Shown one piece after another: positions 4,168 through 55,030 of a stretch of DNA of 64,000 nucleotides (positions are counted from its first letter, which is position 1; each line of letters begins with the position of its first letter). The stretch spans positions 41,168,001 through 41,232,000 of the forward strand of contig OZ024754.1 in assembly GCA_964016885.1 (NCBI GenBank). Direction: 5' to 3'. Origin of the DNA: Eledone cirrhosa (taxonomy: Eukaryota). Below the pieces are notes generated by a model, which worked only from the letters and a program-made list of their open reading frames with translations, did not search any database and was not told the DNA's origin. The translations under genes and the position numbers were made by a program.

Positions 4168-4255
4168 TCCTCTTGATAAGTTGGCAGACCTCGCAAGGAC
4201 TCTATATCTTTGATATATTGTTTTTGTTTATGCCACGAAACTACGTAGTCGAGGA
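4168..4255 (+). ncRNA. Type-I hammerhead ribozyme, U3:A8 variant
   Basis: tcctc-TTGATAA-gttggca...tgccac-GAAA-c-tacgta-GTC-gagga. Stem I is 5 bp, stem II has a long loop, stem III has a palindromic TACGTA loop. Predicted cleavage after 4250. Confidence 0.7.
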
Positions 4256-4777
4256 ATTTAGGAACAGTTTAGGTATGATACATTTTATTACTAATTATAT
4301 CTAAATGTTTCTTCTCTCTTCATAATGTATTTTTAACTCTGATACTGGTTCAGTCTGGTTCAAACTGAATTGGTCTGTCCCAGTCATTCATTGAGCAACA
4401 TCGGTGAAGTTGGCACCCTTAACTCACAGTTGGGTGCGGATGCATTCATGTATATATGTGTGTGTCCGCATGTATCTGTGTGTTTTTAAATATATATATA
4501 TATATATAGTTATCAATTGTCAAAGGAGAGTAAAGAAATAGATTTATCGAGTGTATTTGGCACCAAAAGTCCCCATAGCTTGGGATTAACTGAAAAAGAG
4601 TTACTGAGGATGTGTAGACATCAGGAAGATTAGAAAGGTCCCTATAGCTTGAAATTAGCTGAAAATTAGTTAATGAAGTGTTGACACCAGGAAGATCAGT
4701 GAGTTAATGAGGTGTTGACAACAATATCAGTCAAGTTCCTATAACTTGGGATTAACTGAAAATGTGTAGAGCATAAT

Positions 4778-5006
4778 TTAACCCTTTAGCATTTACATTA
4801 CTCTATATACACTATTGTATTTTTGTGGTAAATGTTTTATCTTACATAATTATCTCACATATTATTGAATCTATGAAATTTTGATGTTATTTATTTTGAT
4901 AATAATACCTTAATGTCAGTATAGGTGGCCAGTTACGGCCGGTTTAAATAGAAAGAGGTGAGAGAATTCTGGCCAGATATGGCCGGTTTAAATGCTAAAG
5001 GGTTAA
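4778..5006. mobile_element. piggyBac-like MITE (TTAA-CCCTTTAGCATTTA ... TAAATGCTAAAGGG-TTAA)
   Basis: 14-bp TIR flanked by TTAA. Further copies at 20002-20217, 21232-21447, 23111-23338, 23696-23929, 51806-52033 and 63382-63610, with partial copies at about 22785-22950 and 42658-42800. Confidence 0.8.
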
Positions 5007-5079
5007 GAAAGCTTCTTATAATTCTGATGGAAGTTTTTTCAGGTAAATATAAACACTTAAAATAAACAGCTATATATTG

Positions 5080-5377
5080 TGGAGGCATTGTGAGTTCAAT
5101 TCTCAGACCGGGTGATGTGTTGTTTCCTTGAGCAAGACACTTTATTTCACATTGCTCCAGTTTACTCAGCTGTAGAAATGATATGATAGAACTGGGGTCC
5201 CTATCATTCCACTACAAAGTGGCTGTGGAGGTGTCACGGCAAAAACGCACCCAGCACTCACTGTAAATGAGGTTGGTGTTAGGAAGGGCATCCAGCTGTA
5301 GAAATCAAGCCAGAATCAGTTCCCGTCCCACCCTTGCAAGCAGGGAAAAGCGGACGTAAAATGATGATGATGATGAT
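5080..5377 (+). mobile_element. SINE family A copy with internal head deletion
   Basis: ggaggcattgtgagttc junction removes the A-box region. The rest matches family A. Confidence 0.8.
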
Positions 5378-51081: not shown

Positions 51082-51150
51082 CTGGGTCGGCAAACTACGG
51101 CCCGCGGGCCAAATGTGGCCCGCTAAAGAGTTTTCTGTGGCCTGTGGAAG
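51082..51150 (+). mobile_element. hAT (Charlie/MER58-like) terminal fragment
   Basis: gggtcggcaaactacggcccgcgggccaaatgtggcccgc resembles hAT-Charlie termini. Confidence 0.55.
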
Positions 51151-51189
51151 CATTCGGTGAATTAATAAAAAAAATAAAAATCAACAAAT

Positions 51190-51730
51190 TCAGGTCTTAC
51201 AACGTAGTCACCAACAACCAGGTAACCTGATTACAGGTGTAAAGCCTTGGACACATCATCAGTATTGTATCCTGGAGTCACTGGGTGTTTTAGGTCTTAC
51301 AACATAGTCACCCTCAACCAAGTAACCTGATTACAGGTATAAAGCCTTGGACACATCATCAGTATTGTATCCTGGAGTCACTGGGGTGTTTCAGGTCTTA
51401 CAACATAGTCACCAACAACCAGGTAACCTGATTACAGGTGTAAAGCCTTGGACACATCATCAGTATTGTATCCTGGAGTCACTGGGGTGTTTCAGGTCTT
51501 ACAACATAGTCACCCTCAACCAAGTAACCTGATTACAGGTATAAAGCCTTGGACACATCATCAGTATTGTATCCTGGAGTCACTGGGTGTTTCAGGTCTT
51601 ACAACATAGTCACCAACAACCAGGTAACCTAATTACAGGTGTAAAGCCTTGGACACATCATCAGTATTGTATCCTGGAGTCACTGGGGTGTTTCAGGTCT
51701 TACAACATAGTCTCCCTCAACCAAGTCACC
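51190..51730. repeat. 100/101-bp tandem repeat, about 5.3 copies, alternating A/B variants
   Basis: caccaacaaccagg..gtgtaaag alternates with caccctcaaccaag..gtataaag. Confidence 0.9.
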
Positions 51731-53828
51731 CAACTGAGGTTGATTAAACCTCAGTTTGTGTCTGTGTGGTATATTCTGTTTGTTACCAAAAAAGTTAAAC
51801 ACAACTTAACCCTTTAATGTTCAAACCGGCCAAAACTGGCCAGAATTCTCTCACCTCTTTCTGTTGAAACTGTCTGTAACTGGTTGCCGAAACTGATGTT
51901 AAGGTTTTGTTCTCAAAATAAATACATTCAAAATCTCACAGATTCGATATTATGTGAGATATTATGTGAGGTAAAGCCTTTACCATGAAAATACAATAGT
52001 ATATATAGAGTAATGTGAATACTAAAGGGTTAATTCTATTTCAGTCGCCGTCAACAGGATATTTGTTATCAAGAGAATAAACCAAAATTACATTTTAATA
52101 TTTAATTAATAAATTTTGTAAAACATTACAATCCATACACTTGCTGGACTATTAGTGGTTGTCATGAGAATGAAAACCAGTAACAGCCATTACAATCAAC
52201 ATGTTGCTAGACAAAACAATTTACTTCTCCTGATTCAGATGCCATTTTTACTTCACAGTTGAGTGGTTAGCAATATGAAAAAAACAGCCACCCAACTGTG
52301 AAGATATTTATCTTCATACTTCACATACAAATGTCTAAATTTACAGAACTACTTCACCCATGGTAGACAAAAACGTAATGAATGCTTCAACTGCCACATT
52401 TGATTAAGTGTATGCATGCATACTGCAGACAAAGAGTTTAAACTGCAGTTTACTTGTATGCATGCAAACTTTTATTTAAACATTTAAATAGACATATACA
52501 GCCATGTTTACCAAACTGGAACTCACCATCATATATATATAAATATATACATATATATACATATATATATATATACATATATAAATATATACATATTTAT
52601 ATATATACATATATATATATATACATATATAAATATATATACATATATATATAAATATATACATATATACATAAATATATATATACATATATACATATAT
52701 ACATAAATATATACATATATACATACATATATATATATATATACATATATATATGTATATATTTATATGTATATATATACATATATATATGTATATATTT
52801 ATATGTATATATATACATATATATATGTATATATTTATATGTATATATATATATACATACATATAAATATATACATATATATATACATACATATAAATAT
52901 ATACATATATATATATATACATATAAATATATACATATAAATATACATACAAATATACATATATATGTATATATACATATATATGTATATATACATATAT
53001 ATGTATATATACATATATACATATATATGTATATATACATATATATGTATATATACATATATATGTATATATACATATATATGTATATATACATATATAT
53101 GTATATATACATATATATGTATATATACATATATATGTATATATACATATATATGTATATATACATATATATGTATATATACATATATATGTATATATAC
53201 ATATATATGTATATATACATATATATGTATATATACATATGTATATATACATATGTATATATACATATATATGTATATATATATGTATATATACATATAT
53301 ATGTATATATACATATATATATATATACATATATATATATATACATATATATATACATACATATATATATACACATATATATATATACATATATATATAT
53401 ACATATATATATATACATATATATATATACATATATATATATACATATATATATATACATATATATATATACATATATATATATACATATATATATATAC
53501 ATATATATACATACATATATATACATATATATATATACATATATATATATACATATATATATATACATATATATATATACATATATATATATACATATAT
53601 ATATATACATATATATATATACATATATATATATACATATATATATATACATATATATATATACATATATATATATACATATATATATACATATATATAT
53701 ATACATATATATATATACATATATATATATACATATATATATATACATATATATATATATATACATATACATATATATATATATATATATATATACATAT
53801 ATATATATATATATATACATATATATAT

Positions 53829-55030
53829 TTTCCTTCCCCCCTCTCCCCTTTGTCCTTCTACCCCAGCTCTTCTCCTTTGTCGGCGTCTTTTCTCGCCCAC
53901 CCGAGGCTGCCCTTTGGCCCCATGTAGCCTTAGTACCCCCACCCCCCCCTCCCCTAGTCTTTGATAGATTTGGCGGACTCCGCCCTTTATAGCAGCTGGC
54001 TTAGACCCCGGATACTTTCCCCCTTTTTCCGACCGCTCCCACTATTCTCTGTGCCCTCTATATTTCTTAGTGGCACTTATGCCTTATTTTTTCGTTTCAG
54101 TATTTCTTGCTTCGCCTTTCTTCTGGGCGGGGTGGATTCTGAATTTATTTCTCCGTATTCTACCTTTATTTCGTACGAACTTTCATGTAGCTTGTTTTAG
54201 ATCTTTTAGAGTTAGCATTAGTATATATTTTTCTCGGGACTCAGAATTATTATCTCGTACAAGTTCACTTTGCTGCACTGGGTCGTTGCTGGCCCGGGAT
54301 GGAAACCTTTATTGTTTATTTCGTGGTAGTCTCTTTAGTATTTTGGCCCCTTTTGTTGACCCGTCACCGTATCATTTACGTACTTATACCTCTTAAAAGG
54401 GTCCTTGCCTTATTCGTCCCACCTAGTTCTCTTACTTATTTCCTTATTTATTCATTTATTTATTTTTTTACTTCTTTCTTTCTTTCTTTATTTTATTCTC
54501 GCCTAACAATAGCCTGACACCTAGGTCGTAGAATTTAATTTACTTTACTTTTCTTTACACTTATTTGCCTTTCTTCACTCTCAGTATTTTTTTTTTTTTT
54601 TTTTTTTTCTTTCCTATTTCTACCCCCCATTGTTCTACCTACCGTTCCGACTTCCTCCCCCTCCCCTGTATCTTCTTTGACCTCATGCCCAGCTGTAGCT
54701 GGCACTACCAACGCTTGATTGGGTCTACTCCACCCCCTCCCCTCTTTCTCCTACTGGCAGGTTTAGCCACCATCTCCCCTACTAATTTGCAACCACAGAA
54801 TTACTACTGATTTTTGACAATCACTTTGACCATATATGGAATTACCCCTTGAGAAGATCGGCTATTTAAATACCAGGATAAATTTTCATTTAGTCCAGAA
54901 TTAGCCGTCGAAACGGCTTGAGCTCTGCTGTCGGGGTCTTACTGGTTCCTATTACCCACTCTACTACCTCAAGTATTGAGTACTTTGGTGCGTTATGGTC
55001 CACCTGGTTCCTTACCACATTTCCTTCGTT
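53829..55030 (+). mobile_element. About 1.2-kb non-coding hammerhead-bearing element in a huge (TA)n/(TATACA)n tract
   Basis: Comparatively GC-rich island with a hammerhead near its 3' end. The 3' 150 bp is shared with short copies at 2522-2680, about 25060-25165, 31061-31240, 35705-35885 and 60720-60915. Confidence 0.6.
54844..54937 (+). ncRNA. Type-I hammerhead ribozyme, U3:A8 variant (second family)
   Basis: acccc-TTGAGAA-ga(t)cggcta...tagccgtc-GAAA-cggc-ttgagctct-gctg-TC-ggggt. All three stems pair. Predicted GUC cleavage after 54932. Confidence 0.72.

Follow-up and report, generated by a model that had tools for sequence, protein, structure and literature searches.

Predicted U3:A8-core type I hammerheads in two abundant mobile families of Eledone cirrhosa

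The DNA analyzed here (the window) is a stretch of 64,000 nucleotides (nt) from the Eledone cirrhosa assembly GCA_964016885.1 (contig OZ024754.1, positions 41,168,001 to 41,232,000, forward strand). Two plus-strand sequences in it, at positions 4168–4255 (hammerhead A) and 54844–54937 (hammerhead B), can be folded as type I hammerhead ribozymes in which core positions 3 and 8 are occupied by U and A rather than by C and G. Hammerhead A belongs to a non-coding tandem repeat of the retrozyme type, and hammerhead B to a Hydra-type Penelope-like retrotransposon. The reading we favor, to which we assign a probability of roughly two in three, is that these are U3:A8 type I folds of two high-copy mobile families, that they cut transcripts to unit length and that the 3:8 swap likely took place separately in each lineage.

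Hammerhead A is part of one insertion of family A (2697–4495, both strands), which runs into (TA)n on both sides. It is made up of ~1.6 minus-strand units (2697–3623) and ~1.5 plus-strand units (3621–4495) set back to back; the left end is 80 nt and the right end 245 nt beyond a predicted cut site, and no open frame of 90 amino acids (aa) or more is present in the insertion. According to the descriptor, the family alignment and the predicted fold, stem I is formed by 4168–4172 and 4251–4255, U3 is 4173, A8 is 4178, and the predicted cut is after 4250, at a GUC site. Stem III is 3 bp long and lies within a perfect 10-nt palindrome (4240–4249). The descriptor also found a second, identical copy of the hammerhead at 3362–3449 and a third at 2772–2859, 590 nt from the second; these two tandem minus-strand copies may be able to dimerize within one transcript. 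The alignment further predicts a 6-bp pseudoknot between 4161–4166, 5′ of stem I, and 4188–4193 in loop II.

Hammerhead B is located in a 5′-truncated copy (53829–55031, plus strand) of a 3,542-base element, with 96.5% identity to the full unit. Only the 3′ untranslated part, the last 1.2 kb, is present, and the copy gives way to (TA)n at 100 nt beyond the predicted cut. The same three lines of analysis place stem I at 54844–54848 and 54933–54937, U3 at 54849, A8 at 54854, a bulge at 54858 and the predicted cut after 54932, again at a GUC site. A 6-nt palindrome (54920–54925) is surrounded by a stem III of 5–6 bp, where the copy in the window departs from the family majority by a single change (54926).

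A preliminary description of the window, made from the letters alone, had given both motifs a bulged U at the base of stem II and a long loop II. The bulge is there in both; it follows the second pair, however, rather than lying between A9 and the stem (4182 in hammerhead A), and among the first 100 family-A matches listed, 87 have C there and 13 have U. The length also stands, since the core-proximal stem II encloses 44 nt in A and 37 nt in B, but the “loop” of A is itself folded into an inner hairpin plus six bases able to pair with 4161–4166.

Family A is a tandem repeat with a 591-base unit that carries one type I hammerhead. The best 40 matches in the genome share an identical stretch of 231 bases and form tandem runs with inverted partners; a wider pattern retrieved 7,135 matches in the genome, with U3:A8 in 99 of the 100 listed, and older subfamilies at ~70% identity retain this core. 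As contigs, four of six listed sequencing runs contain the tandem junction and the C bulge with no listed change at a core position, an observation made at the DNA level only. In an alignment of 22 A-lineage sequences, for which an internally deleted copy and an inverted duplicate were set aside from a set of 24, 94.3% of cells pair and two-sided changes are seen in nine of the 36 named pairs. The pseudoknot is paired in 95.5% of cells, with a two-sided change in one pair only. Loop III of the family occurs as three different self-complementary tetramers: among 100 listed variants unlike the one in the window, 70 are exact palindromes (32 and 37 represent two other palindromes, and one is a further palindrome), 18 can pair with G-U wobbles and 12 do neither. 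The strand of stem III forms no stable hairpin alone, and its duplex is predicted at −12.9 kcal/mol. Since stem III of A stays self-complementary, hammerhead A likely cuts as a dimer. For stem III of B, in comparison, the values are −4.3 kcal/mol for the hairpin and −22.5 kcal/mol for the duplex; modeled in this way, hammerhead B can fold as a monomer, the dimer being optional. Dimer-assisted cleavage, which had been proposed for both motifs, is therefore retained as likely for A, whereas a need for it in B is not supported.

With a 22-letter pattern left open at positions 3 and 8, 2,180 exact matches to family B were found in the genome, and all 100 of those listed have U3:A8. Five tandem matches are spaced by 3,542 bases, which defines the full unit with an open frame of 717 aa. 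A di-aspartate motif of reverse transcriptase (RT) and C-terminal GIY-YIG-like motifs were read by eye in this frame, as were an RWK motif with arginine in the third place, a modified DKG, a CxCX5C linker, CxxC and CxH. The protein has 2,015 homologues, the top one of which carries GIY-YIG. In addition, the element has (TA)n targets, tandem units, an inverted 5′-truncated partner and a tail, as Hydra elements do. Family B thus appears to belong to the Hydra clade; the Neptune clade, suggested by the cysteine linker, was dropped once the Hydra motifs fitted. Subfamily B2 has 289 matches (95 U3:A8 and five U3:G8 among 100 listed), and both B2 and B3 retain the core while position 7 and the letters of loop II differ. 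Two-sided changes were found in three of 19 predicted pairs of the B lineage, in an alignment of 17 hand-picked copies.

To see these motifs against the rest of the genome, we scanned a census sample of 891,000 bases (90 stretches at round coordinates, four of them adjoining the window) with a hammerhead descriptor left open at positions 3 and 8, whose score threshold was chosen after a first pass. There were 33 matches, some of which are inverted pairs of one insertion, versus ~0.9 per dinucleotide shuffle (three shuffles). By core they comprise 25 C3:G8, six U3:A8, one U3:G8 and one A3:G8, the last two being decayed copies of a C3:G8 family. C3:G8 is thus the majority state, and the genome houses at least ten distinct hammerhead families. 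Motifs A and B each have the three helices of a type I hammerhead, ending in stem I, as well as a Watson–Crick 3:8 pair, G12-A14, A15.1-U16.1 and H17. Chance descriptor matches in repetitive DNA would be in line with the modest fold z-scores (−2.1 and −0.5) and with the Rfam search, in which neither site had a hammerhead match at E values up to 10. The Rfam miss is expected, however, because the core is a variant one and stem II is long; over the whole window only microsatellite-driven microRNA matches were seen among the best 150 of 661. The excess over shuffles, together with families of thousands of copies, indicates that the motifs are not due to chance. Hammerhead B, moreover, occupies the end of a Penelope-like unit, a position in which hammerheads are known, and the stems covary in both lineages, so that the family data refute an origin by chance. 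What the preliminary description said about the folds, the compensated 3:8 pair and the failure of standard searches is borne out. The bulge, long stem II and palindrome, on the other hand, are not particular to U3:A8, since C3:G8 families have them as well: stem II regions of 26–50 nt and palindromic stems III were found in most C3:G8 families of the genome.

We scored the ends of insertions relative to the predicted cut. Among 26 distinct ends of A copies, nine lie at +80 and ten at +245/250, into (TA)n; among 42 ends of B copies, two lie at +20, and at +100/105 there are 33 into TA and five other. Each family therefore ends at two fixed points 3′ of the cut, matching the two internal RT starts that, together with a tail, have been described for a lizard Penelope element (PMC11167929). 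Immediately 3′ of the point where the long insertion end falls in the unit is a short motif (3911–3927, plus strand, recognized by eye in comparison with B and H3). It occurs in A, A2 and B as well as in H3, a family of the C3:G8 type; B and H3 are autonomous Hydra-type elements. The motif is likely an RT start signal, and by inference it ties A to Hydra-type enzymes. All full copies span the predicted cut site, which means that the template was uncut or re-joined there. One can envisage that transcription would run through tandem units and that the hammerheads would then cut the RNA to unit length; reverse transcription would start 20–245 nt inside the next unit and run back over an uncut or re-joined cut site, giving tandem arrays. 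Family A, a non-coding repeat likely moved by Hydra-type Penelope enzymes, would borrow a Hydra-type RT-endonuclease. A query with the Hydra-type endonuclease gave 59,739 first-look candidates in the genome, so the clade is very abundant; a protein search for diverse Hydra ends yielded 30 loci, all of one family. Frames that adjoin A copies at loci L076, L077 and L080 (Hydra-type) and L078 (another RT) were considered as the autonomous partner of A and rejected because they are separate insertions that share the (TA)n tracts with A but have ends of their own. Loci of A2–A4, D and B2 have no open frame attached within 1.5 kb.

Cleavage at both hammerheads is predicted. Selected catalytic function had been claimed earlier; selection on the fold is supported at the level of lineages by stem covariation in A and B and by two-sided changes in loop III. 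It may be argued instead that the folds are kept for protein binding or template switching, with U3:A8 being a weak or near-dead core that hitch-hikes with master copies. Such a core would agree with the uncut or re-joined templates implied by full copies, with the slow in vitro cutting by Penelope hammerheads (PMC4209133), with the lack of effect of hammerhead mutants on insertion in vitro (PMC11167929) and with the A that replaces U4 in all three H3 copies seen. A dead core has no need, however, of a second, compensating change. Moreover, across a divergence of ~30% the unpaired catalytic positions are fixed and position 7 is variable, the palindrome of loop III has persisted through two-sided changes, and U3:A8 has been reported to be active in vitro. 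We regard the near-dead core as very unlikely.

Several points nevertheless weigh against unit-length cutting and the proposed mode of movement. The hammerhead of the lizard Penelope element cuts only with protein and is dispensable for insertion in vitro (PMC11167929). The unconstrained minimum-energy fold differs from the hammerhead fold by 1.6 kcal/mol in A and by 0.2 kcal/mol in B. The covariation score of A was reached by none of 500 shuffles, in a control that ignores relatedness. The placement of B in the Hydra clade rests on motifs read by eye, and Pfam and PDB searches with the B protein gave nothing. Finally, no autonomous partner of A was found among the adjoining frames or at the loci inspected within 1.5 kb.

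The history of the swap was approached through family D, which came to light as the C3:G8 motif closest to A in a comparison of peripheral positions and proved to be a non-coding family with 83 matches (75 C3:G8, four U3:G8, one C3:A8 and three U3:A8; two of the last three were examined and proved to be A-lineage copies). Upstream of the core, D and A share collinear blocks with z of 4.7 and 6.7 (0 of 100 shuffles), compared with z ≤ 1.5 for B, B2 and B3 against A. Family D shares the 5′ flank of A, and 19 of 23 D copies, read by eye, have the pseudoknot partner in loop II. A further C3:G8 tandem family, f15 (locus L254), aligns with A2 only (z 4.5). Since the nearest relative of A found is the C3:G8 family D, and not B, the 3:8 pair has switched at least twice in this genome. 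For each swap, a U3:G8 wobble or an intermediate of low activity would come first, followed by fixation as a single master copy was amplified. Our early reading that A and B descend from a common source was weakened once family D had been found. From these sequence comparisons, the independent origin stated in the preliminary description receives moderate support (D is the nearest relative of A, and the flanks of A and B do not align), two gains being considerably more probable than one gain plus a reversion. The two families had also been called unrelated. This is correct for their sequences and flanks, which do not align, but the two are members of the Penelope world, with a common insertion style and a motif in common adjoining the end.

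It is conceivable that, with the ribozymes working just as in the favored reading, there was a single swap, the A/D retrozymes being derived from a B-related U3:A8 element, or A having captured a B core, with D and f15 reverted. Peripheral identity between A and B (16 of 34 positions) speaks for this, as does the likeness of A and B2 in the two-pairs-then-bulge stem II, the GUC site and an identical stem II start. The stem II start is also near-identical in A4 and B3, A and B share the motif after the long end, and, provided that D and f15 are sister families, a gain with a reversion requires as many double changes as a pair of gains. The flanks of A align with those of D and not of B, however; the pseudoknot layout is common to A and D and lacking in B; and C3:G8 is the majority both here (25 of 33) and in published Hydra elements. 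We consider a single swap unlikely.

Not all the data favor separate swaps, and the following should be set against them. In the 130 nt that adjoin the core, the A–D alignment reaches z of only 1.9–3.5 (B lineage ≤ 0.6). Homology of A and D is patchy, with profile searches giving E values of 0.04 and 0.02, weaker than some of the matches that the D profile has in other AT-rich families. The 16 of 34 peripheral positions shared by A and B correspond to p = 0.004 in a letter shuffle that ignores hammerhead constraints, compared with 19 of 34 for A and D. Ten letters from U3 on are identical in B2 and the A copy of the window. In a quick protein tree built from the genome's own fragments and homologues, B groups with B3 and two further frames (weak support of 66 at the B node), and other Hydra families, of the C3:G8 type, lie elsewhere, except for one short long-branch fragment inside the B group. 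The published list of Hydra hammerheads could not show U3:A8, because its descriptor required the canonical core.

A more far-reaching idea treats the 3:8 pair as an evolvable rate dial that has flipped between C:G and U:A repeatedly among the Penelope elements and retrozymes of this genome, as in A versus its C3:G8 sister D and in B versus other Hydra families, the weaker U:A being selected to leave part of the RNA uncut or re-joined. If this were true, partly uncut RNA would let RT run back through the site and lay down tandem arrays, and A and D would form a natural matched set. We think it quite unlikely. A stronger periphery compensating for U3:A8 was considered as well, an idea weakened by D, in which the same periphery goes with C3:G8.

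The swap itself is not new: C3/G8 covary to U3/A8 in several natural hammerheads that are active in vitro (PMC3088659), and ~1,300 U3-A8 minimal hammerheads, of low activity in vitro, are reported for the Cercyon Penelope-like elements of Schistosoma mansoni (PMC4209133). Like A and B, the Cercyon motifs are of type I, with a long helix II, a short helix I and a bulge near the base of stem II; they also have a palindromic 15.2–16.2 region with a dimer model, a location in the Penelope pseudo-long terminal repeat (pLTR) and copies in opposite orientation. Unlike them, A and B possess a stem III (3 bp in the 10-nt palindrome of A, 5–6 bp in B), have the bulge after the second pair and a stem II enclosing 37–44 nt, and are carried by a Hydra-type element and a retrozyme, A with a predicted pseudoknot. 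Such stem I–stem II pseudoknots are used by ~40% of hammerheads, so the contact predicted in A is of a known type; the passages of PMC3088659 consulted describe no 3:8 switch between sister retroelement families of one animal genome.

Family B resembles the published Hydra clade, which includes an Octopus family, in its single open frame, C-terminal endonuclease, clade motifs and (TA)n targets, and in a hammerhead near the 3′ end with tandem and inverted copies (PMC8557442). It differs in having U3:A8, a long stem II and a 3.5-kb unit versus less than ~3 kb; all hammerheads in the published list are C3:G8 with short loops. Family A is like animal retrozymes of the non-LTR type in being a non-coding tandem repeat whose units each hold one type I hammerhead, and it resembles the axolotl family in its palindromic loop III and likely dimer cutting (PMC7229834; 10.64898/2026.07.22.740005). 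Retrozymes have been proposed to be non-autonomous Penelope derivatives in these sources. Unlike those published, A has U3:A8, inverted partners and two fixed ends, and its 591-base unit is outside the 170–400 nt given for non-LTR retrozymes, which is a described range and not a mechanism.

Our literature search found no earlier U3:A8 report for Hydra-clade elements, though the supplements of PMC4209133 and of the bioRxiv paper may bear on the point. Neither a new ribozyme nor a new kind of element is defined here; what is added is the likely separate rise of a published swap in two families. The U3:A8 core is extended to Hydra-clade Penelope elements, ~9,000 hammerhead copies are added that Rfam and canonical-core descriptors miss, and the sisters A and D, which differ at 3:8, should be useful for asking what role hammerheads have in Penelope transposition.

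Four further remnants of the B lineage are present in the window as fold-back stubs that lack the 5′ half of the core: 2513–2680 (B lineage, with the 3′ half of the hammerhead and the tail), 31046–31240 and 60722–60912 (both subfamily B2) and 35695–35885 (family B). Most B2 copies (L121–L150 and the stubs in the window) lack their 5′ part and fold back at a point within the hammerhead's loop II, and the 3′ half of B2 gives 3,870 matches versus 289 for the 5′ half, with different patterns. The fold-back point is possibly a hot spot of RT stalling or template switching. Family H3 (L076, ~3395–3440; L224; L296) is 52–55% identical to B in protein, and the A at core position 4 in the three copies seen is possibly a second fixed core variant. 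The leader of Hydra family H10 (L232, ~2050–2300) has two short hairpin motifs like the one after the long end of B, one of them directly after the insertion end. An E-box-like hexamer that several non-coding tandem hammerhead families (f15 at L254, D and A2 loci) share, by eye, at ~80–170 nt upstream of the core is a candidate for an internal promoter element.

A C3:G8 hammerhead is found in the window too. Each arm of an inverted repeat at 30460–30977, which spans 518 bases, is perfect and lies in (TA)n, carries a canonical minimal hammerhead (30619–30663, minus strand; 30774–30818, plus strand), and further copies of this repeat are present at other genome loci. Minus-strand frames at 34388–35281, 41377–42042 and 46745–47023 are non-repetitive and look like exons of a host gene, one of them ending in a hydrophobic stretch; the B copy at 53829–55031 would fall near or within this putative gene. 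Minisatellites occupy 36577–39987 (74 bases), 11702–12733 (72 bases) and 20502–21235 (46 bases), the last two being derived from a dispersed repeat.

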